DNA of 64,000 bases, taken from a virus (lineage: Duplodnaviria; Caudoviricetes). The position numbers and the translations under genes are program-made. Numbering within the stretch: the stretch's first letter is position 1; the number at the start of each line of letters is the position of its first letter. The DNA is taken from IMG/VR virus record IMGVR_UViG_3300021185_002017, one strand, 5' to 3'. Shown here piece after piece: positions 7,319-58,198 of the stretch. The notes beneath the pieces are model-generated. The model did not search any database and was not told the DNA's origin. It saw only the letters and a list, made by a program, of their open reading frames with translations.

Positions 7319-8167
7319 TTATTTTCCTTGTTTACTTCTTGTTCTAGGACTCTCTGGACTACCTAAAAATTCATTGTTTCTAGTATATGAAGGAGTTTCT
7401 CTGTCTACTCCTTGAGTTAAAAATTTTGTTACAAGATCAAATACATCAACATTTTGCTCGAACCTATTTAGATCTTGCTGGTCTAAATCAAAGTTAAACT
7501 TCTGGTTAACTGTCATACTTTCTATTTCAAAGTCTATTGAAAATGTTCTAAAGCCAGAATCAGTATAATCTAGGTCATCGGGGGCAAATCCGGTTATTTG
7601 AGGTCTAAATAAAATATATTCAACTCCTCTACCACCATGGTATTGAATTATTCTGATACTATCAATAAAATGTGTTTCTTCGTGTATATCCATTCCTGCG
7701 TCATTGCTCTTCCATGCACTGGACATAAAAGAGGCTGGAGCAATAGTAGATGTAGCATTAGTGTCCCATTGCTTAGGATCGCCATCTCTTGTAGTGCCAT
7801 CGCCGGTGCCTGTTCTATTACGAGGATCGTTATATTGAAATGCAAAGTACTTCATAAACAAAGTAAGCCATTCGTTAGCCACAGTGTCAATGACTGTCAT
7901 ACTGCAAGGGCCGTAATCGACCCCTGTCTGTATAACTCTGCGATGATTGTATTGTCTTTTGATTGTTGTAGCAAAAGATATTTCTGGTATTTTACAAGTT
8001 TGAACCAGAGAACTAATCTGTGTTCTAAAAGACCCGGAATTATCCATTGCTTTTGCCAGTCTAGGGTTAAAGTGAAATTCCACAAACCCTTGAAACTTTT
8101 GTCTAGGTGGCGTAACATCAGGTTTAAACCTGTCTGCATTACGCCAATTCCTAAAGAAAGATGGCAT
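7319..8167 (-). CDS. Tail tube-like protein (gp19/gp54-like paralog)
   Basis: Tube-type pattern (CKIPEISF..TIKRQYN...DYGPCSMTVID...LDY); directly downstream of the tube gene. Confidence 0.6.
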   Translation of the reverse strand: MPSFFRNWRNADRFKPDVTPPRQKFQGFVEFHFNPRLAKAMDNSGSFRTQISSLVQTCKIPEISFATTIKRQYNHRRVIQTGVDYGPCSMTVIDTVANEWLTLFMKYFAFQYNDPRNRTGTGDGTTRDGDPKQWDTNATSTIAPASFMSSAWKSNDAGMDIHEETHFIDSIRIIQYHGGRGVEYILFRPQITGFAPDDLDYTDSGFRTFSIDFEIESMTVNQKFNFDLDQQDLNRFEQNVDVFDLVTKFLTQGVDRETPSYTRNNEFLGSPESPRTRSKQGK

Positions 8168-8181
8168 AGTTAGTTACCTTC

Positions 8182-8817
8182 TTAACCTGCTGGGCTAGTA
8201 GTCACTAAACCTGTTGCTGCGGCTGTGAATGGTGATTCATTACCAGCTCTACCGTTAACGTTATTTGTACCCGCTTCGTGTGTAGCATTATCAAATCTTA
8301 ATGTTAAAGTAACAATCTGTGACTCAGCTGCTGAATAGTCGTGATCACCGTAAGTAACGTTTTGGATGAAACATCCTTCTAAACGCCAAAACTCAGTTGG
8401 TTTGCTTATTTCAGTACCATCTAGTACTTCAATGTCAGTATCAAATTTAAAGTCGTTACTTGAAGCAGCAGTTGTTTGCTGATAGTGGTTGACTTGTCTT
8501 TGTACTTGAGCACCAACAAGTTTAGCAACACTGTTAGTAATATCATCACGAATAACAACATCTACTGTTTGCCATGTATGCTTGCCTTGTACATAAATTT
8601 TACTGTTAAAACTGTGTACTTCTACTTCGTCAACACTAACAGATGGTCTAGTTACACTTTGAACATTTTGTGTTAGTGATGTTGAATTTTGTGAACCTGC
8701 AAAAGGCGACAAAAAGTTTACACGGAAACGATACTTTAACTTAGGCATTAAAATGCCTGCTTTTTTATTAGCCTCGTCTATCGGTACTCCGAACTTATCT
8801 TTAGTTGGATTTGCCAT
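8182..8817 (-). CDS. gp19: Tail tube protein (gp19-like)
   Basis: VTRPSVSVDEVEV, GKHTWQTVDVVIRDD, WRLEGCFIQNVTYGDHDY, LTLRFD; follows the sheath gene; GATAAATA at 8861-8868. Confidence 0.85.
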   Translation of the reverse strand: MANPTKDKFGVPIDEANKKAGILMPKLKYRFRVNFLSPFAGSQNSTSLTQNVQSVTRPSVSVDEVEVHSFNSKIYVQGKHTWQTVDVVIRDDITNSVAKLVGAQVQRQVNHYQQTTAASSNDFKFDTDIEVLDGTEISKPTEFWRLEGCFIQNVTYGDHDYSAAESQIVTLTLRFDNATHEAGTNNVNGRAGNESPFTAAATGLVTTSPAG

Positions 8818-8909
8818 TTTTATATTCTCCTAAAAAATCTATAAATGTTTTATATGCTATTATTTATCAGATAATGACAAAAAACATAAACTCGAGTTTT
8901 AATTTAGTC

Positions 8910-11770: not shown

Positions 11771-11874
11771 TTTGTTTTCTCCTAATATATTAAGATACGA
11801 ATGATCGTATGCACTTATTTATCAGAATTAAGGTATTATTGGGCTTTATGGAAATTGAAAGGTATTAGGGGATA

Positions 11875-46231: not shown

Positions 46232-46432
46232 TTACAACGTTGGCTCTTCGCCACCTGCTTTGTACATAACTTTTACAAACTTTGTATGTTCTATGTCTTC
46301 TGCTCTGCTGATTTCTCTAACTTTTCTTAACTTGTTTAATTCTTTAAGTGTTAGTTTAGATTTTCTAGTATCCTCTTCGGCTCGTAAAGTTTCTTGGTCT
46401 CTACTAGGTTCGTAAAATTCATTAATTTTCAT
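46232..46432 (-). CDS. Small hypothetical head-region protein
   Basis: 66 aa coupled to the portal stop (TAATG); DTRK.KLTL..LNKLRK motif. Confidence 0.7.
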   Translation of the reverse strand: MKINEFYEPSRDQETLRAEEDTRKSKLTLKELNKLRKVREISRAEDIEHTKFVKVMYKAGGEEPTL

Positions 46433-48153
46433 TATATTAATTGCTCGCCTTCTGCCGGTGGAACCGTATTATCTGTAGTTGTATTTATGCCATCTGCCCC
46501 TAAAGCAGGATCTTCAAGCCCAGAAAGGTCCGGTTCTGCATTAATATCAACTGCTGCATCAGGTTCTGGTCTAACACCTATGTTTTTAAGTGCGGCTGCT
46601 TTCTCATTATCTTGATATTTTTGATAATCGTTCTCTTCACGCCACATCTCTTCGTTGCTCTTCATTTCGTTGTCGCTTAGACCCATATACTTTTGTAAAG
46701 CAAATCGCTTACTCATATAAGGTAACTGTGCAACCTGATTAAACATTTGAGCTCTTTCTGTATTAAGTTGTAGTTCTCTATAACTACTAAAGTTCATTGG
46801 CTTATTAAACAACATTCTAAATGTGCCGTTATCAATGTCAATGCCTTTGAACTTTAAGAAAAGTTTAAATTCTCTGTCTAAATCTTCTTGTACTTGTTTT
46901 TGTAGTCTTTCAACATATTTTGCAAATCTATATTCCTGAATGTATGCAACACCTACTTTACCATCGTTGTAAGTAGCACTTCCATCGTCTGGTCCTGTTG
47001 GCAAATAACTAGCAGGAATACGCAAACCTCTTAATAGTTTGTTATTAAAGTATCTTAAGTCGTCTATTTGTCCTAAGTTCTCACCACCTGGTAGTGTATC
47101 AACTTTGGAACCTCTGCCGTCTGCTGTTTGTGCAAAGAAGTAGTCTTCTAACATGCTCATTGGATTGTATGCACTGTCTGTTACACTGCTACCGTCGCCT
47201 TTGCTGTTAGGTACTCGTTTTTGTTGTACTTCGTATTTTACTCGTTCTAAGTATTGCTGTGCTTTGTGTGCAGGCATGTTACCTACATCAATAAAGAATA
47301 CTCTTCTTTCAGGTGCTCTATGCACTCTGTAAATAATAATTGAATCTTCTAATAGTTCTTTTTGCTTGAACACTTTAAAGATAGGTTCAAGTATGCTAAC
47401 ACCAAATGGCCATGCATGGTCCATTCCTTCTGTTAAACTAACATGCACAACATGTTTTGCATCAACTGGAACACCTTCGCCGGCACCCTCAACTGAGCCT
47501 GTCATGTAGTTGTTGCTTACAGTGTTAGTAGGACTCATTATGCCTGTTAAGCCTTGTCCACTACCATATGGTCTAGCATGTAATGCTGCTGGGTCTGTTG
47601 CAACTTGTTCTGCAAAGTTTGCTTCTAGGTTTTTAATAAAGTATTGCTCTATCTTCTTACCTTCACTTTCGTTAACAACAACCTTTTCAATGTTTGCAGG
47701 ATCTACCCAGTACAATTCATATGTTTCTGGATCTCTGATAAAGAACTGGTCTCCGTACTTACATGTGCTACGGAACATTCTAAATGCACGTTTATGCATT
47801 TTATTTAATCTTACCCAATTATGTAATGTCTTATCTATAATTTTTGCTTCTGTATCACTCGGAGAGGACAAAAAGTCAATAGTAAAAGGTAATCCGGAAT
47901 AATCGTTTTCTTGTGTGCCAAATTCAGCAATAGTATCTAACGCCGCATTTACTTCTAAGTCTGAATCCATTTGATCGTACTGAACATAACGCATAAGCCT
48001 ATTAGGGCTACCTGCATATACTTCTGGCAACCAACTATTAAACCTGCTTGTTGCCGCCGCACCAAATGTGCCGTCTGCCTTATCTGCACCCGTTTGGATG
48101 TTTAAAGGTAAACCTGAGTTATCAAAGGGTGTAAAATGCTTTCGCCAGCTCAT
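46432..48153 (-). CDS. gp20: Portal protein (gp20-like)
   Basis: EDSIIIYR..RAPERRVFFIDVGNMP..KA.QY, SMLEDYF...R...V.TLPGG.NLG...D..YF..KL.R.L.IP.S; GATAAATA at 48184-48191. Confidence 0.95.
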   Translation of the reverse strand: MSWRKHFTPFDNSGLPLNIQTGADKADGTFGAAATSRFNSWLPEVYAGSPNRLMRYVQYDQMDSDLEVNAALDTIAEFGTQENDYSGLPFTIDFLSSPSDTEAKIIDKTLHNWVRLNKMHKRAFRMFRSTCKYGDQFFIRDPETYELYWVDPANIEKVVVNESEGKKIEQYFIKNLEANFAEQVATDPAALHARPYGSGQGLTGIMSPTNTVSNNYMTGSVEGAGEGVPVDAKHVVHVSLTEGMDHAWPFGVSILEPIFKVFKQKELLEDSIIIYRVHRAPERRVFFIDVGNMPAHKAQQYLERVKYEVQQKRVPNSKGDGSSVTDSAYNPMSMLEDYFFAQTADGRGSKVDTLPGGENLGQIDDLRYFNNKLLRGLRIPASYLPTGPDDGSATYNDGKVGVAYIQEYRFAKYVERLQKQVQEDLDREFKLFLKFKGIDIDNGTFRMLFNKPMNFSSYRELQLNTERAQMFNQVAQLPYMSKRFALQKYMGLSDNEMKSNEEMWREENDYQKYQDNEKAAALKNIGVRPEPDAAVDINAEPDLSGLEDPALGADGINTTTDNTVPPAEGEQLI

Positions 48154-48228
48154 AAATCTAATAGTCCTGTCTTATTATAATACTATTTATCAACTATTTT
48201 AAAGTATAAAATTTAATATTGGCTGTGG

Positions 48229-51200
48229 TTAGAAACTGTCTGAAAGATTTCCAGTAAGTTTGTTACCTGATCTAAGTAGTTTATTTGTTTGTTCTTGGTT
48301 TTTAACCATTTGCTCAAATAACTCTTTGTTTGATGTTCCTGGTATTTCTGCTGCTTTGCCGCCTGTGTCTGCTTCTGCTTGTGCTGTTTTTAGTTCTGGT
48401 TGCTGTGTTTGTACTGTTTCGCCTACAGGATTCATTGCTTTAGCAACACTAGGCGCCTGTGCTCTAGCTCTGGCTGCATCTTCTGGAGATACAGTAGAAG
48501 CCATGCCGCCTTGTTTCATTGTATCTCGTCTGCCTGCTCCTCTTGCTTTAGCACGTTCGAACGGAGTCATTTCTGCACGAGTTTTAGTTACTGCTCCTGT
48601 GTCTACTTCTGCTCGTTTAGCATTATCGAGATCCATTTGTGCTAATGCTACTTCGCCGTCTAATGCTGTCTGCTCAGTGATATCTGCAAAATCATTTATA
48701 CCTTTTGCCTGTGCTGCAACTGCTGCATCTAATGCTTTCTGTGCTTCTTCTACAGATGGTGTATCTGGCGATACCATAAGATCATCGCCGTACTCTGCAC
48801 TAAACGATGCACCTGTGTAGCCTTCTTGTTTGCTAGGAGTTGTTGTATCAGTAGGTGTTGGTTGCTCTTGTTGTATCGGACCAAATGTTTTCATAGCAGC
48901 CATCTTCATCAAGTCCATCATGTTGATGTTGTCCATGGACTCGTTTAATGTGTCTATGCCTTCTGCTAAATGTGCAAACTGTTTTCCTGCTGCTTTGCCG
49001 TCTAACTGCTCCATTGCTGTATTAAAGTTTTCAACTGTTTGGCCCATGTTGTTCATGTTCTCTGTCATTGAAACTATTGCCGGTGCTGCCGCTCCAATCT
49101 TAGCAAGTTTATCAAACGGTGATTCAGAACCAAACAAACTACCTAGTCCATCAAGTACTCCGCTAATTAATCCACCTGCACTAAATGCTGCCATACCAGC
49201 CGCTAGTGATACTAAACCAGGTCCTAGTAATAATACATTTTTAGGGTCTACATCGTTAAGCAGTTTGAAACTGCCCATTAGTTCAACCATTGCTGGGGCA
49301 GCAATTTTAACTGCAACTGCAAATGGAACAAGTGCTAAGCCTAATGCACCAATTGCTAATGCACCTACGCCTATTACTGGTGCTATAGGTGCTAACAAGA
49401 ATGCTGCCGCTCCTAATACACCTAATGCTACTGCACCTGCGGCTACGCCTGCCCAGTTAATGTCTGCAAACTGTTGGAATGCTTTTCCTGCAACAAACAT
49501 TGCTCCGCCTAATGCACCTAATACAACTGTACCTAGTAATGCTTTAGGATCTCCTAAAACTTTTAAACCTTGTCCTAAACCTGTTAATGTTCCTTTTAAT
49601 AAGCCGCCTATACCTGCACCAATACCTTTACCTGCATCGCCTATGCCTTTGGCTAATGAACTTATGCTTTTTTGTATGCCTTTAGCAATATTGCTTACAG
49701 AGTTGCTAATACCTTTGCTTAAATTTGTTAGCACATCAGATATACCTTTGGATATATCTTTCATGCCTGTTGCTAATGACTTTGTAAAGCTCTTAGATTT
49801 TTTACTTGCAGTGTCCATGGCTTTTGAACCCATGTCCATTTCTTTTGCTTTGCCTGTGATCTTGTCTTTGGCTTTACCAAACAAGCCATCAAGTTTGCCG
49901 CCTGTTGCTTTGCTTATACCGCCTGTGACTTTGCCCATCATGTTCTTAGCACCATCCATCAAAGACTTGCCCATGTTAGCAAACATCGATGGCATTGTTT
50001 TACCAAAGAGGCCTAACGCACCGCTTAATACTTTAAAGCCTACTACGCCCAGTGTTACTACACCTAGCAGTTTACCTAGCATATTACTAAGTCTTAGTCC
50101 GCTACTTTCTCCGTCACCGAAGATATTTGCTAATGCAGAAACTTTTTCTCCTAAGTAAGAGAAGACGGAAGTAATTGGACTTAACACTGCCATAACAGTA
50201 TCTAATGCTGATGCAAGTACTTTAAATGCAAATACAACTGGGCCAATGAAAACACCTAGCACTTTCATAACACTCATAAAGCCTTTACCGAACGACATGA
50301 TACCTGAACCAATATCTTTTGCTGTTTGTATCATATCCGGTATTTTTTTAATAAAGTCTGCAATATATTCTGCGGCAGTTCCTATCATAGGTATTAATCG
50401 TTCGCCGAACGATTTACCTAAACTTTTAGCACCTTTTGTTAAATCAGTAACACCTTCGAGATTTTTCATACCAAAGATTTCGCCAATTACTGGCATCAAT
50501 GCTTCGCTGATTGTTTTTTGTGCTGATTCAAATGCTTTAGTTAGTTTGCCTGTCTTGCCGCCAAGTTTACCTAAGTCGCCTACAGCATTACCTAGCCCAC
50601 CTAAGAAGCCTAATTTTAAACTTTCAAAGATACCAGTAATCTCTTTCATTATCTTAGATAATGTATTAGTACCGGTTTGTACGCCGTCCATGGTTAAACC
50701 TGCACCCATGTCTTTAATCTTTTTAGCAGATGCTTCAAATTGTATAATGGCTTTTGCCATACTAGCGGCCTGTGCGTCACCTGCTCTGTCTAGTAAGAAT
50801 ACTCTTTGTTTTTCTGCATCGGACAAATTACCAAGTTGCTGAGTCATGTCTAACGCCATTTGTTCAGCGTCTTCTTGACTTAGTGTACCGTTTTTAATTT
50901 GCTTAATGTAATCATTCATTGGGCCTGCTAAACTAGGCAGTGTTCTAATGTACCCAGTCATGCTTTCACTGAAGCCCATTGCGCCACTTGCCGCTGCTTC
51001 TGTCATTGCGGCTGCAATTGCTCCGCCTTCTTCTCCGCCCATAGCTCTCATAGTACTACCAAAATCAGTAATACCTGAGATAACTTTACCTCTTAATTCT
51101 TTGTCAAACTTTAACAAACTAGATGTAAGTACTGGAGTTTGCTGTATTAAACTGTCTGTAAACGCAACTATGTTATCAACACTTTCACCAAGTACTGATG

Positions 51201-52059
51201 CATATTTTTGTTGTGTTTTAATAGTTCTAGTAACTTGCTGAGTCATTCTAGTTTGATTCATTCCGTCTAGAATACCCATTGCTCTTCGTTTTTGCAACTC
51301 AGCACCCATACGCTCAACACTGTCATCTAGACTCATGCCTAATTCTACACCACTGTTTGTTGCATCCATAAATGCACCAGTGAGTTCAGTAAATGCTTTT
51401 TTGCTCATTGTTTGAACAACACCAGAGAAGTTACCAAGTGTTGCCGCGGCATCTATACCCATTGTGCTTAGGTCTGCCATTGCATCAGCGGCACTCATGC
51501 CACCTTGCCCTACACTGTCAGTAAATCCTGCACCTACTTTAGTAAGTTCGTTTAGTGTTCCGCCTAATCCCATAAAGGAATCTACAAGCATTGTGCCGTA
51601 TATAGTAATTGCTGCTATAGTACCTGTGATTGCTGTAGACGCTGTTTCGTACATTTTAACAAAAGCAGTTTCGCCTATTGCGGCACCTTTGTTAAATTTA
51701 TCTAGTGATGCTGCTGCACCATCGGCTGCGGCTGAAATTTTACCAGGACTACCACCACCGTTAGTAACTGTAGGAGGTCCTGCAGGTGCACCTGGTGCTG
51801 GTTTGTTTTTAGCAAATTCTTTACCTAATCCTTCAGTTACCTTGTGTAAGAGGTCTCCATCTTTAATTAGTTCTTTATGACGCTTTTCTGCATCTTTAGA
51901 ATCGGATTTTGCTTGTTCGAGTAATGCTTTAAGGCCTTCTTTGTTTTCTTTTGTTAAAGTCGTCAACATTGTCAGCATTGAATCTGCTGTACTTTCTAAA
52001 CTCCAATCAGGTACAATTGCCTGCGACCCATCTGGTAAATCTATTCTCAACGATGCCAT
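48229..52059 (-). CDS. Tape-measure-like protein
   Basis: 1276 aa, A/G/M/K-rich helical protein with hydrophobic patches; GATAAATA at 52083-52090; adjacent to gp26/gp51-like genes. Confidence 0.75.
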   Translation of the reverse strand: MASLRIDLPDGSQAIVPDWSLESTADSMLTMLTTLTKENKEGLKALLEQAKSDSKDAEKRHKELIKDGDLLHKVTEGLGKEFAKNKPAPGAPAGPPTVTNGGGSPGKISAAADGAAASLDKFNKGAAIGETAFVKMYETASTAITGTIAAITIYGTMLVDSFMGLGGTLNELTKVGAGFTDSVGQGGMSAADAMADLSTMGIDAAATLGNFSGVVQTMSKKAFTELTGAFMDATNSGVELGMSLDDSVERMGAELQKRRAMGILDGMNQTRMTQQVTRTIKTQQKYASVLGESVDNIVAFTDSLIQQTPVLTSSLLKFDKELRGKVISGITDFGSTMRAMGGEEGGAIAAAMTEAAASGAMGFSESMTGYIRTLPSLAGPMNDYIKQIKNGTLSQEDAEQMALDMTQQLGNLSDAEKQRVFLLDRAGDAQAASMAKAIIQFEASAKKIKDMGAGLTMDGVQTGTNTLSKIMKEITGIFESLKLGFLGGLGNAVGDLGKLGGKTGKLTKAFESAQKTISEALMPVIGEIFGMKNLEGVTDLTKGAKSLGKSFGERLIPMIGTAAEYIADFIKKIPDMIQTAKDIGSGIMSFGKGFMSVMKVLGVFIGPVVFAFKVLASALDTVMAVLSPITSVFSYLGEKVSALANIFGDGESSGLRLSNMLGKLLGVVTLGVVGFKVLSGALGLFGKTMPSMFANMGKSLMDGAKNMMGKVTGGISKATGGKLDGLFGKAKDKITGKAKEMDMGSKAMDTASKKSKSFTKSLATGMKDISKGISDVLTNLSKGISNSVSNIAKGIQKSISSLAKGIGDAGKGIGAGIGGLLKGTLTGLGQGLKVLGDPKALLGTVVLGALGGAMFVAGKAFQQFADINWAGVAAGAVALGVLGAAAFLLAPIAPVIGVGALAIGALGLALVPFAVAVKIAAPAMVELMGSFKLLNDVDPKNVLLLGPGLVSLAAGMAAFSAGGLISGVLDGLGSLFGSESPFDKLAKIGAAAPAIVSMTENMNNMGQTVENFNTAMEQLDGKAAGKQFAHLAEGIDTLNESMDNINMMDLMKMAAMKTFGPIQQEQPTPTDTTTPSKQEGYTGASFSAEYGDDLMVSPDTPSVEEAQKALDAAVAAQAKGINDFADITEQTALDGEVALAQMDLDNAKRAEVDTGAVTKTRAEMTPFERAKARGAGRRDTMKQGGMASTVSPEDAARARAQAPSVAKAMNPVGETVQTQQPELKTAQAEADTGGKAAEIPGTSNKELFEQMVKNQEQTNKLLRSGNKLTGNLSDSF

Positions 52060-52219
52060 TAAGTTTCCTCTTTAACTGCAAGTATTTATCTGAAAAATTA
52101 AAACTAGGTTTAATACTGAATTACCTATAATTTAAAACCCTGTTTAACAGAACCGATAAATATGTAGTTAAAGAAGTAATAGTACATAATGTGCTAGTAC
52201 AAATTTAGGATGATAACAT

Positions 52220-53089
52220 ATGACAAACAAACACAATCCATTAAGTTCGCATTTTAGAGCACCTAAACTTTTTGCACCTATTCCAAGTGCTGGAAAGTTT
52301 TACGACACTTCTGTGTTGGAAATGCCTGAAACGCTAGAACTACCTATATTTGCTATGACAGCAAAAGACGAAATGATTATGAAGAATCCTGATGCACTAC
52401 TAAACGGCGAGGCAGTTGCACAGGTTGTACACAGTTGTGTACCTAATGTCAAGAATGCTAGAGCAATGTTAAGCAGTGATATTGATGTATTACTAGTTGC
52501 TATACAAGGTGCCACATACGGCGATGAAGTAGAAGTAACTGCAGAATGCCCAAATTGTAATGAAGACCAAACCGGTGTTGCAAGTGTTGAAGAAGCAATT
52601 AGTAGCATGGGTACTCTAGAAGAAGAGTATGTTGTAGAGCATGACGGGTTAAAAATTCAAATACGACCTTTTACTTATGCCAGCACAATACAAGCAGGTA
52701 TTACAAATTTCCAAAGCACTAGAAGTTTACAAGCATTAGCAGATGTTCCAGATGAAATGGAAAGACTAAGTTTGTTTAACAACAACTTCAAGCAGATTGC
52801 TGCATTAAACTTTAGTTTAATAGTAGACAGTGTTTCAAGTGTTAGTTTCACAGACGAAGAAGGCGAGGAACAAATTGTTACTGACAGAAATCATATCACA
52901 GAATTTTTAGACAATGCAGACAGCAAGATTGGTAAATCAATCGAAGACAAAATTGCAGAGCTAAACAGCATTGGTATTAATCATGAAATGAAAATGCAAT
53001 GCGAAAAATGTCAGGAAGATAACGGTGAACCAGTAGTGTTCGAAAGCCGTGTAAACTTTGACCCAGTAAATTTTTTCACAGCTTCCTAG
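52220..53089 (+). CDS. gp26: Baseplate hub / tail assembly chaperone (gp26-like)
   Basis: PSAGKFY, MTAKDE, D.D.LLVAI..ATYG, CPNC and CEKC motifs; GATAAATA at 52155-52162. Confidence 0.8.
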   Translation: MTNKHNPLSSHFRAPKLFAPIPSAGKFYDTSVLEMPETLELPIFAMTAKDEMIMKNPDALLNGEAVAQVVHSCVPNVKNARAMLSSDIDVLLVAIQGATYGDEVEVTAECPNCNEDQTGVASVEEAISSMGTLEEEYVVEHDGLKIQIRPFTYASTIQAGITNFQSTRSLQALADVPDEMERLSLFNNNFKQIAALNFSLIVDSVSSVSFTDEEGEEQIVTDRNHITEFLDNADSKIGKSIEDKIAELNSIGINHEMKMQCEKCQEDNGEPVVFESRVNFDPVNFFTAS

Positions 53090-53132
53090 CAACCTCCGAA
53101 CCAGAGGACATAGTGGCGTACCTAGGTAAGCT
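53068..53132 (+). other. Candidate programmed -1 frameshift (gp26 to gp51 fusion)
   Basis: Overlapping slippery heptamers A_AAT_TTT and T_TTT_TTC, downstream 10 bp stem, and an open -1 frame continuous with 53113-53307. Confidence 0.65.
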
Positions 53133-53307
53133 CAAAGACGATCAAACTGCCCTAAGCAAAAACATTGCTGAATTAGTAATATACAGTGAAGGTGCAGTTT
53201 CCTGGTCAGAGGCTTGGCATATCCCACCCTTAGATAGAGACCTGCTAATTAAAACACTTAATAAATTCAATAACGCCAAAGCAGGCAACAATAACGAAAT
53301 GCTCTAA
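53113..53307 (+). CDS. gp51-like baseplate assembly protein / C-terminal frameshift extension of gp26
   Basis: V..SE...SWSEAW.IP..DR.LLI pattern resembles gp51 and T-type chaperone tails; GTG start with GAGGA RBS. Confidence 0.6.
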   Translation: MAYLGKLKDDQTALSKNIAELVIYSEGAVSWSEAWHIPPLDRDLLIKTLNKFNNAKAGNNNEML

Positions 53308-54203: not shown

Positions 54204-54629
54204 TTATATCTTTTTCATCGCTTCACGGAGGATTTGTGAACCTCCTACTCTGACATTTATTATACCATTATAATACTCGTCTGTCAAGAGAACTTTGCGA
54301 TTAAATTGTTCTTCTGCTTCTAAATAACTTGCAACGCCTCTACTTGGGCATATATGCAGTATCTCTCTTGTAAATTTATCCTCGCCTAGTTCTAAAACGT
54401 CTGCTTGGAGATGATCCGAGCTACCCCAATAGGTACGCCAGTCACTTTCTTTTGTGCCTCGGCGTTTGTTCTTTTTTCCTTTTAGTGGTGGCTTGGTTGT
54501 TTTAAATTTTGCTAATTTTTTGCCTATGTACTTTTTGTCGTTAGTTGTGTTTGTGATTAAGTATACAAATGCTTCACAACCTTCTGGAAGTGTGTCTATA
54601 GTTTTGTTTTTATAAGTCCATTGCGACAT
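54204..54629 (-). CDS. GIY-YIG family endonuclease-like protein
   Basis: FVYLITN...KKYIGKK, ESDWRTYWGSS, F.REIL..C motifs typical of stand-alone T4-like GIY-YIG proteins. Confidence 0.85.
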   Translation of the reverse strand: MSQWTYKNKTIDTLPEGCEAFVYLITNTTNDKKYIGKKLAKFKTTKPPLKGKKNKRRGTKESDWRTYWGSSDHLQADVLELGEDKFTREILHICPSRGVASYLEAEEQFNRKVLLTDEYYNGIINVRVGGSQILREAMKKI

Positions 54630-54638
54630 AGTACATAG

Positions 54639-55424
54639 TTATCTACTGCCAATGCTATGCACGAACTTATATCGGCTAATCTGTTCTAAGTCGGGTTTGT
54701 GTGTAAGTTTACCTAACTCAATATATCCTATTGCTAATTTTGGGTCGTCAATTGGGTGTGGCAGTTTGTGTGCAATTTGCATACACCAACGCTTTACATG
54801 TTTTGTAACTGCTTTTGCATCAACACACTGATCTGGTGCAAACCATGCAAGTAAATCGCTTTTAACTATGCTAGTGGGAATTATATGTTCTGGTGGAACA
54901 TCTACATCATTGTCGTAGCATATTTCCATTATGTGCTTACCTACATGTGGATAGTTCATGTACAAATAATTATCTAGTCTAGTAGGCGAAAACAATTCGT
55001 AATCACTGTCCTCTAATGGTTGAGGTGAAGGCTCGCCTGTTGCTGTACTAATTAAGAAGCGTCTATTTTTATTGCTTGTTATATCTTCTAAATGATGTAA
55101 GTGATAGTTAAACATACTAAGCCACTCTCGTAACTCTCCTGTTTCATTGTGTACATGGTCCGGGAAGTTTTCGTGTAGTCTATTTAGATCATCACTGCCT
55201 GTGAATATTTCAGGCTTGATGCGTTTGATGTTTTCTATACTGTGATCTAAGTTTGCTTGTACTTCTGCTATTGTTTCGCCCCAGTTATAAAACTGAGTAC
55301 GACTTACAAACTCGTAATTGTTATCTTTGTAGTTGTTCCAAATTACTTCAGCAATACGGTTGTCAAATAGTTCGTATGTGAGTGTGTACTCTGCATTACG
55401 GCCTAAGTGTATATCAATCCACAT
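54639..55424 (-). CDS. Hypothetical protein
   Basis: 261 aa ORF overlapping the gp46 stop; LNRLH.NF...FNYHLHHLE segment. Confidence 0.7.
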   Translation of the reverse strand: MWIDIHLGRNAEYTLTYELFDNRIAEVIWNNYKDNNYEFVSRTQFYNWGETIAEVQANLDHSIENIKRIKPEIFTGSDDLNRLHENFPDHVHNETGELREWLSMFNYHLHHLEDITSNKNRRFLISTATGEPSPQPLEDSDYELFSPTRLDNYLYMNYPHVGKHIMEICYDNDVDVPPEHIIPTSIVKSDLLAWFAPDQCVDAKAVTKHVKRWCMQIAHKLPHPIDDPKLAIGYIELGKLTHKPDLEQISRYKFVHSIGSR

Positions 55425-57177
55425 ATTCGGTGTCAGTGTTGTACATAGTGAATCCTCCTTCCTTGACCACTGTTAGTACATTATTCACTCTACCTACTAG
55501 TTCTTCTTTGTGCGAAATAAGGAAAATATTTTTACCTTGCTCTCTATTCATCTTCTTAAGGATACTTAAGGCGTTCTCTACACCCATTGTATCCATACCT
55601 GAGTCGATTAATTCGTCAATACACATTAGGTTCATCGGCGCATTTAAGCTCTCATACATGTCTCTAAATGCCCAAGATAAGCCCAAAATAAGTCGATTGC
55701 GTTCGCCTCTACTTAGATTATCAAAGTCTAAGTCGCGTCCATATTCTGTTATTTCGACATTTAAATCGTTCGCAAATTTTACATCATGCGGCAATCCTAA
55801 CTTATCTAAGTACCATGCTAACCTGTGATTTAGGTATGCAATGTTCTGATCAATAATCTTTTTACGGATAAAACTATCCTTGCTTGTTAACAGTTTGTAC
55901 AAGAACTCTTGATGATCTTTTAAGAATGTTAATTCATTTATTAAGTCAAAACTAACTTCTTGTAAGCCTGTTTCTTTGAGCATCTCTATTTGTTCAACAT
56001 AAGGATTCTCTTCCTCTTGCTTAGTTTGGTACTGTTGAGCAAGAGATTCTAAATTGTGTTTGTGTTCGTATGCTTCTTCTACTGTAGCATAAAATGTACT
56101 TACTGTTTCAGGCACATCAATAATTTCCATTGCCTTTGTGATTTCATCAACCTTTTGCTCACTGGCAGCATTTAGCTCTGTTTCAGATGCAATCTTTTCT
56201 TTTAGTTCATTTATATAATCGCTGTGTGTATCCAAGTGTGATGTAGTTTGTTTACATGCATGGCATACACCTGCTTCAGCGTCTACTAAGTTTCCTTCAA
56301 GCTCTGTTAGTCTTTTTATGTTGCGTGTATTACTTGCTTGAATTGTTTTTAATTCTTTAGACAATGTGTTATAATTGTCTTGCTGTTCTTTGGCACTAAC
56401 ATTTTGTTTGTGCGATTCAATCTCCTTGTTGACATCTAGTTCGCCTAGTGTAGTTATTGCTACTTCTAGATCTTTTACTTTCTGATTGTGTGTGGCTTCC
56501 CATGCTTTTTTACGGCTTTCTATTTCTTGTATGTTTTTATCTATACGACCGTTTGCATCTTTAACAGCACTGATACGCAACTCTTCTTCTTTGATGTTGT
56601 CACGAGTAAATTTAGTTTTTTCTTTTAGCAACTCTGCTTTTGCACTTAGATCAGTAATACCTAGCAACTGCTCGATCATATCTTTTTGATCGTTGTTCTT
56701 CATACTGAGGAAAGGTTCGCTGTATGTGTTTAATGCAACCAAATGCTTAAACATGTTATGCGGAAAGCCGATAATCTTTTCAATTGCTTTTTGTGTTTCT
56801 CTACTATCGCCTTGCTGTTCTTCGCTTATAGTATCTTCACCGTTTACTATAAACTTTAACACATTAGGTCTACGACCACGCTCAATACGATAGTCAACAC
56901 CCTTAGACTCAAACTCAACAGTGGTCATCATGCCTTTACTGTTTGTTTTGTTAATTAAGTTATCGCGGCGAATGTTAGTAAGTGCCTCACCATACAATGC
57001 ATAACTGAGTGCATTAATAATAGTTGTCTTACCTGTACCGTTTCTACTACCATCTCCACCCATGTCTAAGTTATGACCTAGCACTAGGGTTAGTTGACAG
57101 TTGTCAAAGTTTACTGCTTGAGTATTGTTGCCCACACTCATAAAGTTACGGGCTGATACATTTTTAATCTTTAGCAT
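55414..57177 (-). CDS. gp46: Recombination endonuclease ATPase subunit (gp46, Rad50/SbcC-like)
   Basis: RNFMSVGN, Walker A NGTGKTT, CHAC zinc hook, LSRGE signature, IDELID, LISHK. Confidence 0.95.
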   Translation of the reverse strand: MLKIKNVSARNFMSVGNNTQAVNFDNCQLTLVLGHNLDMGGDGSRNGTGKTTIINALSYALYGEALTNIRRDNLINKTNSKGMMTTVEFESKGVDYRIERGRRPNVLKFIVNGEDTISEEQQGDSRETQKAIEKIIGFPHNMFKHLVALNTYSEPFLSMKNNDQKDMIEQLLGITDLSAKAELLKEKTKFTRDNIKEEELRISAVKDANGRIDKNIQEIESRKKAWEATHNQKVKDLEVAITTLGELDVNKEIESHKQNVSAKEQQDNYNTLSKELKTIQASNTRNIKRLTELEGNLVDAEAGVCHACKQTTSHLDTHSDYINELKEKIASETELNAASEQKVDEITKAMEIIDVPETVSTFYATVEEAYEHKHNLESLAQQYQTKQEEENPYVEQIEMLKETGLQEVSFDLINELTFLKDHQEFLYKLLTSKDSFIRKKIIDQNIAYLNHRLAWYLDKLGLPHDVKFANDLNVEITEYGRDLDFDNLSRGERNRLILGLSWAFRDMYESLNAPMNLMCIDELIDSGMDTMGVENALSILKKMNREQGKNIFLISHKEELVGRVNNVLTVVKEGGFTMYNTDTEYVD

Positions 57178-57178
57178 A

Positions 57179-58198
57179 TTAAATTTCTAACTCGTTATAG
57201 ATATCGATTAACTTATCTCGTTCGATTGTGGTAGAATCAATTGTGTCTAATTGTTGTAGCACTATTTGATCTACACTTTCAAATTTTATCTCACTGCCTT
57301 CAAATTGCTCTTCTTCTTCTTTGATAGGAATAAGTTGCAATTCCCTAACATTATATTGTTCAGCAAACTTCTCTTTAATGAAAGTTGCCTCTTCATATGA
57401 AATACTGATATCTAATTTTACACGAGCATAGGTATACTTGTCAAGTAAATTCTCATGGTTGTCCAGCAATTGTTTAAGACTAAACACTCTGTACTTAGGA
57501 CATTCGCTCCAATTTACATAGATAGGTTCCTCTCCCCATGTTAAGAACATAGCACCACGCTCGTCATCATCTACATCTGCATAGTTGTGAGGGAAAGCAT
57601 TACCTAAGTAATGTATATTGTTTTTAAACTGACGCTTATGGAAGTGTCCTGAGAATACATATTCTGGGCCTGATAACATTTTATCATTAATGCCTCCGCC
57701 ATGGTCTGGCATCTCTACCATTGCATTCATTTTAAAATACGGAAGTTCAAAATGACCAAACATGTACTTGACTTGCATCTTGGCAACTTTTTTGTATTCG
57801 TCGCCAACTAGCCATGGAATGATAGCAACATCATCTTGCTGGAAGTGTTCGTCTACCATTACAAAGTTAGAAAGTTCTCTAGCATATTCAATACTGTTCA
57901 TATCTCGTTTGTCTCTATAATAGAGATCGTGATTACCAGTTATAAAATATACTGTTTCAAAATTGTCATTTAGTTTTTTAAGATCTTTAATTGTTGCATT
58001 CATTGTTGCAACATTAATACTTGATCGGTGATGCATCCAGTCACCAAGGAAAATACATGTTTCAGCATTCCTTGCTTTTGCTTCTGCAATAAACCAATCT
58101 ATGTATCTGTGGCAATCATCTAAGTGTAGACGACTGTTTTGTTTTAGCCCGTAATGTATATCCGTAAAACAGGCCGCTGTTTTAAACAACTGACTCAT
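57179..58198 (-). CDS. gp47: Recombination endonuclease nuclease subunit (gp47, Mre11/SbcD-like)
   Basis: DIHYG, LGDW.H.R, GNHD, GHFE, SGHFH metallophosphoesterase motifs. Confidence 0.95.
   Translation of the reverse strand: MSQLFKTAACFTDIHYGLKQNSRLHLDDCHRYIDWFIAEAKARNAETCIFLGDWMHHRSSINVATMNATIKDLKKLNDNFETVYFITGNHDLYYRDKRDMNSIEYARELSNFVMVDEHFQQDDVAIIPWLVGDEYKKVAKMQVKYMFGHFELPYFKMNAMVEMPDHGGGINDKMLSGPEYVFSGHFHKRQFKNNIHYLGNAFPHNYADVDDDERGAMFLTWGEEPIYVNWSECPKYRVFSLKQLLDNHENLLDKYTYARVKLDISISYEEATFIKEKFAEQYNVRELQLIPIKEEEEQFEGSEIKFESVDQIVLQQLDTIDSTTIERDKLIDIYNELEI

Follow-up and report, generated by a model that had tools for sequence, protein, structure and literature searches.

A predicted programmed −1 frameshift provides gp26-like and gp51-like forms of a baseplate-hub assembly protein from one gene of a Caudoviricetes virus

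The analysis presented here concerns a 64,000-nucleotide stretch of DNA (the window) from the IMG/VR virus record IMGVR_UViG_3300021185_002017 (Duplodnaviria; Caudoviricetes), a giant phage related to T4, and in particular a hub-assembly gene of the T4 gp26/gp51 type that occupies positions 52220-53089 on the + strand. Judged from the sequence of the window and its relatives, this gene very probably contains a programmed −1 ribosomal frameshift site, by which a gp26-like form of 289 amino acids (aa) and a gp51-like form of 362 aa are produced. Most ribosomes would stop at the TAG codon at 53087 and release the short form, corresponding to T4 gp26, while a fraction of them would slip back by one base on A_AAT_TTT_TTC (53068-53077), read the −1 frame up to 53304 and release the long form, corresponding to T4 gp51. 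A single gene would thereby provide both of the hub-assembly chaperones for which T4 has separate genes, and their ratio would be fixed. That both forms act as chaperones is suggested by analogy to T4 genetics.

In frame 0, the hub gene ends with GAC CCA GTA AAT TTT TTC ACA GCT TCC TAG, with the stop codon at 53087-53089. This end contains a tandem slippery run (53068-53077, + strand) in which the heptamer A_AAT_TTT (53068-53074) overlaps the heptamer T_TTT_TTC (53071-53077), both being in frame. The distance from the end of the conserved run, AAATTTTTTC, to the end of the gene is 12 nucleotides (nt), and a slip at either heptamer would result in the same 362-aa protein. The −1 frame is closed by a TGA at 53059-53061 and stays open from 53062 to the TAA at 53305-53307; it reads PSKFFHSFLATSEPEDIVAYLGK... 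and continues without break into an open reading frame (ORF) that starts with GTG and covers 53113-53307. At its C-terminus, the long product would carry the tail encoded by the −1 extension at 53077-53307 (+ strand), which comprises 76 codons (53077-53304) and the TAA stop. The predicted long form therefore consists of hub residues 1-286 and a 76-aa tail, joined as ...VNFF|HSFLATSEPEDI..., and its predicted junction peptide is VNFDPVNFFHSFLATSEPEDIVAYLGK. The terminal codons, the two in-frame heptamers and the open −1 frame joined to the downstream ORF had been the starting point of the preliminary description of this DNA, and all of them are present in the sequence.

The identity of the gene, as defined by the ORF list and its translation, is indicated by profile searches. 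The 289-aa protein matches the Pfam family PF12322 (T4_baseplate) over residues 49-268 with an expect value (E) of 7e-18 and a score of 65.6 bits, which exceeds the curated cut-off of 24.5 bits, and its match in PHROGs is phrog_150, baseplate hub, with E 2.5e-18. These matches place the gene in the T4 gp26/gp51 family for baseplate-hub assembly. The AlphaFold2 model of the hub domain is poor, with a predicted local distance difference test (pLDDT) value of 62.7, and a search of PDB with this model gave no match. Five related contigs contain one PF12322 copy apiece; related contigs, 74-111 kb in length, have completeness ratings of 20-27%, from which a phage genome of probably near 400 kb can be deduced. 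In public records, the hub gene of Yersinia phage fHe-Yen9-04 (g243c) is mislabelled as 'Lead, cadmium, zinc and mercury transporting ATPase', and the gp26-type hub gene of Escherichia phage WPEC5 is called 'portal protein', again an evident annotation error. The homologue in phage CBB is annotated as 'structural protein', which suggests that the short form may be present in the virion of some phages.

Conservation of the site was analysed in a clade of 38 loci, consisting of the window and 37 usable IMG/VR loci with hub proteins 55-84% identical to it, and in 10 isolated jumbo myophages with hub proteins 24-37% identical; the isolates include PA5oct, Phosso, Atu_ph07, 121Q, CBB, XbC2, fHe-Yen9-04, SCTP-2 and a Vibrio phage. 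An in-frame heptamer located 9-39 nt before the hub stop codon, together with a −1 ORF of 73-90 codons across the heptamer, was found in 47/47 relatives. The alignment of gp26 3' ends that the preliminary description had suggested as a check thus came out in favor of a kept slippery site and a kept open −1 frame. The +1 frame, on the other hand, is never open in the 38 clade loci and the 10 isolated jumbo phages. Elsewhere in the hub genes, in-frame X_XXY_YYZ heptamers occur at a background of 0.0054 per codon, corresponding to about 0.05 heptamers expected in the 9-codon overlap; by this count, the presence of a heptamer at the homologous place exceeds chance.

Individual heptamers differ in their distribution. 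A_AAT_TTT is kept in 38/38 clade loci. T_TTT_TTC is kept in 27/38 of them, and also in cyanophages, in KVP40 and in every one of the 10 isolated jumbo relatives; the more distant phages contain T_TTT_TTC only. Within the clade, positions −21 to +12 around the site are nearly invariant, including synonymous sites. The remaining 11 clade loci read AAT TTT TCC, and this T-to-C exchange replaces phenylalanine by serine in frame 0, is silent in frame −1, and destroys T_TTT_TTC while leaving A_AAT_TTT whole. Because of these TTT TCC variants and the 5-6 nt spacer to a downstream stem, A_AAT_TTT is more likely the working site in the clade. Third-position variability in the clade is that of frame 0 within the hub gene; from the hub stop codon onward, it is that of frame −1. 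In the 24 nt before the GTG of the window, the −1 periodicity is as pronounced as deeper in the ORF (1.45 vs 0.85 and 0.66 bits).

These data also bear on the 64-aa ORF at 53113-53307 (+ strand), which begins with GTG, appears in the ORF list in the style of gene callers, and is probably not a true expression unit. The −1 peptide can be aligned from its first post-slip residue to its end without register shifts across 37 unique sequences. The GTG at codon 12 is limited to the window and its 6 nearest relatives (7/38 clade loci), and in the remaining clade the first ATG, GTG or TTG is found at codon 13-48, mostly at codon 29-48. In PA5oct (NC_071039, downstream of PQE65_gp336), the −1 ORF of 78 codons contains no ATG, GTG or TTG at all and is unannotated. 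Since the peptide aligns from residue 1 and start codons come late or, as in PA5oct, are absent, the −1 ORF cannot be a separate gene. The GAGG that precedes the GTG of the window is not conserved, even among the nearest relatives.

Counterparts of this arrangement exist in more distant phages. In P-SSM2, S-PM2 and KVP40, the gp26 gene ends with xxT TTT TTC GNN TAA and is followed by a −1 ORF of about 55-60 codons, and HTVC008M has T_TTT_TTT, a T8 run, at the homologous place. T_TTT_TTC is kept in 77/77 cyanophage-type IMG/VR loci despite synonymous variation in the flanking codons. The last frame-0 codon varies between G, V, A, R, P and K, and the −1 codon that overlaps it is CGN, encoding arginine, in 39 of the 43 unique cyanophage-type sequences. 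This arginine constraint shows that frame −1 is already under selection before the hub stop codon is reached, which reinitiation does not explain. In the P-SSM2 record, the −1 ORF is annotated as a separate 'gp51 baseplate hub assembly catalyst' (PSSM2_015), and the KVP40 record notes the likeness of the small ORF to the C-terminal 40 aa of T4 gp51 (KVP40.0327). Ribosomal slippage is annotated in none of the records of P-SSM2, KVP40, ViI and PA5oct. In Salmonella phage ViI (NC_015296, ~47,500-47,700), the gp26 gene ends with GAA ATT TTC ATT TAA, and a homologous −1 ORF of 57 codons, which has no start codon and is unannotated, opens 10 nt before the stop codon. In this phage, slippage may occur in the P site, on U_UUC.

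The relation of the −1 tail to gp51 is best described by starting from T4 itself. T4 gp51 (249 aa) consists of PF12322 over residues 1-201 (E 4e-52) and a tail of about 48 aa, and T4 gp26 (208 aa) consists of PF12322 alone; the two proteins are thus paralogues differing by the tail. T4 also has an annotated gene 26' (2303-2590 of the record), an internal-start product that represents the C-terminal 95 aa of gene 26, and T4 may thereby make three PF12322-derived forms. In the gp51 family, the tail consensus begins with KLLLNPDE right after an FF motif and ends with Y...SIM.M.P.ER.IALSLVEK, while the consensus of the extension family reads FF|..[FL]L...PEEI ... YS.GSIS...A..MS..ER...VK.INK. The shared motifs LL..P[DE]E.. 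and YS..SI....M.P.ER...L.L.EK appear in the same order and directly behind FF in both. Through the junction, the profile of the fusion family is colinear with that of the gp51 family (global hhalign, E 3.7e-6), and the tail-vs-tail alignment scores 21.1, which was reached by 0/200 column shuffles (10.4 +/- 2.5, maximum 20.0). Based on these profile comparisons, homology of the −1 tail to the tail of T4 gp51 is probable. BLASTP of the tail against T4 gp51 gave no match (E 2.6), and the link is visible by profile methods and by the colinear fusion alignment only. No Pfam or PHROG family was assigned to the tail in the libraries scanned, which did not include PF28602, a family listed by precomputed Pfam on gp51 proteins. 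The AlphaFold2 model of the tail shows a helical domain of three to four helices (pLDDT 82); Foldseek searches with this model against PDB and BFVD recovered its own family only, and a sequence search of PDB with the gp51 profile found no solved relative.

As the ORF at 53113-53307 matches only the tail of gp51, the whole 362-aa fusion would be the counterpart of gp51 and the 289-aa product the counterpart of gp26. The preliminary description had seen in the two ORFs a frameshifted gp26/gp51 pair; the frameshift is strongly supported by the relatives, but the downstream ORF does not represent a whole gp51.

An exhaustive search with the tail profile yielded 200 representative clusters, nearly all of them short ORFs cut at assorted start codons. 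Three of the clusters are proteins of 336-346 aa (P0249, P0288 and P0299) that contain PF12322 and the tail in one frame and lack a slippery run. On their contigs, which originate from several samples, a tail-less PF12322 gene that is 22-27% identical is located directly upstream. Examples of this order are the JGI metagenome contigs L229:51-2051 and L232:196-2114, where a tail-less gene for 297-329 aa precedes a gene for 336-342 aa with the tail, so that two genes independently make up the pair otherwise provided by the frameshift; the upstream tail-less gene of L229 retains T_TTT_TTA near its 3' end. T4 contains two PF12322 genes, and one each is found in 121Q, PA5oct, Atu_ph07, CBB, S-PM2, P-SSM2, HTVC008M, ViI and KVP40. 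T4-type gene 26, a natural control, ends with the non-slippery GAG TTC TTT GAG and is followed by gene 25. As far as can be read from these genomes, the short and long pair exists in three genomic forms, i.e. frameshift, tandem paralogues and the divergent paralogues of T4. Among the indirect evidence, these three forms argue most strongly for a need for both products and for the hub domain as the proper place of the tail. Four elements are shown by comparison of the relatives, namely a slippery signal, an open frame, selection that acts on frame −1 ahead of any start codon, and the natural occurrence of in-frame long forms.

Downstream of the slippery run, the window contains a candidate stem-loop at 53080-53132 (+ strand). 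Its stem is formed by 53080-53089 and 53122-53132 with one bulge, encloses a small CCUC/GAGG hairpin, and begins 5 nt past A_AAT_TTT and 2 nt past T_TTT_TTC. In 8/26 unique clade sequences, this stem is kept at 9-10 of 10 pairs, and it is the consensus of the 8-sequence subgroup around the window, without compensatory changes. In 14 other clade sequences, the 5' arm GCUUCY pairs instead with GGAAGC or AGAAGC about 55 nt downstream, and this distal pairing includes one covarying pair (UA in 9, CG in 4 and one mismatch). In most clade members, a stem begins 5-6 nt after A_AAT_TTT, with a 3' partner that differs between subgroups, and Atu_ph07 and Phosso have long, strong stems directly after the heptamer (z-scores of −6.7 and −3.9). 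Thus, a downstream stem is recurrent, but it is lineage-specific and sits in constrained coding sequence; it may contribute to the slip. The stem proposed in the preliminary description exists and is the minimum free energy (MFE) fold of the window, although it is kept in the nearest relatives only. The further suggestion that the inner hairpin hides a downstream ribosome binding site was rejected, because both the GAGG and the GTG start lack conservation; the hairpin as such is present.

Several observations weigh against a programmed frameshift in the window. The MFE of the window fold, −13.4 kcal/mol, is no better than that of shuffled sequences (z-score −0.6), and RNAalifold found no consensus structure over the whole clade. 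Local hhalign comparison of the tail with gp51 reached a probability of only 2-17%, and Salmonella phage ViI has no canonical heptamer at the 3' end of its gp26 gene. The remaining points are also those that favor two separate genes, according to which the 64-aa product would be translated from the GTG at 53113 or be coupled to termination at the hub stop codon, with the slippery run merely encoding Phe-Phe. Thus, the GTG at 53113 is preceded by GAGG at a distance of 5 nt and could start a separate 64-aa product, the records of P-SSM2 and KVP40 list a separate small 'gp51', and an ATG is located 5 nt past the hub stop codon in 72/77 cyanophage-type loci, where independent or coupled initiation may therefore coexist with the frameshift. 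Moreover, FF is a conserved protein motif of the family that is also found in T4 gp26 (which ends with ...KEFFELL), and part of the conservation of TTT TTC is accordingly at the protein level. Two separate genes are nevertheless considered very unlikely. The late, rare or missing start codons and the loss of GAGG even in the nearest relatives argue against them, and so do the conserved residues with −1 periodicity that precede those start codons, the selection on the −1 codon overlapping the last hub codon, and the placement of the tail on the PF12322 domain in both the natural in-frame fusions and T4 gp51.

Transcriptional slippage would lead to the same protein by a different route, i.e. RNA polymerase would add one U in the T6 run and a subset of mRNAs would encode the fusion in frame. 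The homopolymer at the site (T6 in the window, T8 in HTVC008M) is in line with this possibility, and comparative data alone do not separate slippage at the RNA level from slippage at the ribosome. Bacterial RNA polymerases, however, usually need runs of about 8-9, and T6 is shorter; 11 clade members have just T5 and yet keep the codon-phased A_AAT_TTT. In addition, the run invariably keeps the X_XXY_YYZ phase, with a C at position 7 in nearly all cases, even though TTT is the preferred Phe codon (71%). Phase and position 7 fit better with tRNA re-pairing than with polymerase stuttering, and the stem at 5-6 nt in most relatives further speaks against transcriptional slippage, which we regard as a highly improbable explanation. 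It would thus presumably be the ribosome rather than RNA polymerase that slips at this site. A chance arrangement or a decaying remnant that yields no second product has a practically negligible probability. Heptamer, frame and a peptide of 70-78 aa are conserved across lineages with hub proteins that are only 24-37% identical, and the tail domain is carried by 200 representative clusters. As far as sequence can tell, this explanation is refuted by the comparative data.

The genomic neighbourhood of the hub gene contains further structural genes. An ORF for a putative tape-measure protein of 1276 aa is located at 48229-52059 (− strand) and matches phrog_4070 (E 1.7e-5) and phrog_305 (E 8.6e-5), 'tail length tape measure protein'. 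Beside it, at 46432-48153, is the portal gene (phrog_213, E 6.5e-118). The same gene order is found in 121Q, CBB and XbC2. The preliminary description had placed the hub gene next to the tape-measure gene, and the hub gene does adjoin the 1276-aa ORF, although the assignment of this ORF relies on weak PHROG matches and the two genes are on different strands. It is possible that the 1276-aa protein is a client of the hub chaperone. The genes for the tube, tube-like and sheath proteins are 44 kb away from the hub gene; they include the major tube protein (8182-8817, − strand; phrog_4542, E 7e-56) and an adjoining, weaker tube paralogue of 282 aa (7319-8167, − strand), possibly a tube initiator of the gp48/gp54 type.

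The sequence ATAAATA at 52156-52162 (+ strand), 58 nt upstream of the hub ATG, is a candidate for a T4-late-like promoter. In total, ATAAATA occurs at 21 sites in the window, for instance at 1623-1629 (−), 8861-8867 (−), 11816-11822 (−), 48184-48190 (−), 52083-52089 (−) and 52156-52162 (+). It is found on the coding strand just 5' of most structural genes, including both of the divergent tape-measure and hub genes. Only this placement stands out, since the total count is not above that of shuffled sequences. On the other side of the hub locus, a 141-aa ORF at 54204-54629 (− strand) matches the homing-endonuclease PHROGs phrog_7363 and phrog_314, as well as phrog_447. Its position is between the hub locus and 55414-58198, where the SbcC/SbcD-like (gp46/47) genes are found.

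Frameshifts in tail-chaperone genes are a hallmark of long-tailed phages, and T4 and its relatives have been the group not known to have them. No paper or database record of a gp26/gp51 frameshift was found, the literature being covered by full-text searches that reached few subscription journals. We tentatively propose, as a scenario that is possible but more doubtful than the frameshift itself, that the −1 frameshift in PF12322 genes is ancestral and dominant in the T4-related superfamily (jumbo phages, cyanophages, pelagiphages and the KVP40 type) and was replaced by one short and one long paralogue in the T-even phages and a few uncultured lineages. In this scenario, gp26/gp51 would be the counterpart of lambda G/GT, the tape measure, gp29, would be coated by both forms, and the long form would use its tail to recruit a hub or tube component. 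If this is true, chaperones that come in two forms and in a fixed ratio are common to all groups of long-tailed phages, including T4, and a concrete model would be available for the 50-year-old puzzle of the 'catalytic' gp51. The frameshift would account for the presence of a paralogous pair of hub chaperones, gp26 and gp51, in T4, and also for the orphan ORFs of 55-80 codons, called 'gp51' or 'hypothetical', that follow gp26 in cyanophages, KVP40 and jumbo phages. It would require an annotation correction for hundreds of genomes, including those of PA5oct and ViI, where the region is unannotated. In a relative that can be cultivated, changing the codons of a single heptamer could alter the short-to-long ratio, and PA5oct would be a good cultured system. 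Finally, frameshift, tandem paralogues and divergent paralogues would represent a natural series in which a frameshift is replaced by gene duplication.

Tail assembly chaperones made by −1 frameshift in long-tailed phages are exemplified by lambda G/GT and by E/E+E' of P2. As in lambda G/GT, a tail-assembly factor of the window is predicted to have a short form and another one with a C-terminal extension, an X_XXY_YYZ heptamer is located a few codons before the stop codon, and the gene adjoins a putative tape-measure gene. Different from lambda, the hub gene and the putative tape-measure gene are divergent, and the hub gene is not located between tube and tape-measure genes on one strand. Its short form is twice the size of lambda G, and its tail half the size of lambda T. 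None of the window proteins matched Phage_TAC or Phage_tail_T in Pfam at E <= 1, while in the control lambda G matched PF06894 and lambda T matched PF06223. Foldseek searches against PDB and BFVD likewise gave no match to TAC or T folds, a weak test in view of the poor hub model. The likeness to lambda G/GT is thus an analogy of logic, and homology is not shown. The preliminary description had linked the T4 hub-assembly factors to the G/GT system; the shared frameshift logic agrees with this link, whereas a Pfam or fold connection is missing and the gene position differs.

The closest comparison is that with T4 and with the T4-related phages that have a small 'gp51'. T4 gp26 and gp51 are both listed as hub assembly chaperones, and gp51, the function of which is unknown, is essential and not present in the virion (PMC3004832). 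If the product of the window behaves like T4 gp51, it is expected to be absent from the virion as well. The small 'gp51' ORFs of P-SSM2 and KVP40 are the same element as the −1 tail of the window, but they are recorded as independent genes, a reading that is excluded in the clade of the window and in PA5oct by the lack of a usable start. Compared with T4, the domain is larger in the window (289 vs 208 aa), as is the tail (76 vs about 48 aa), and the two predicted forms share an identical N-terminal region of 286 aa, unlike T4 gp26 and gp51. T4 has two diverged and divergently transcribed genes without a slippery run, whereas the window appears to use one gene for both proteins.

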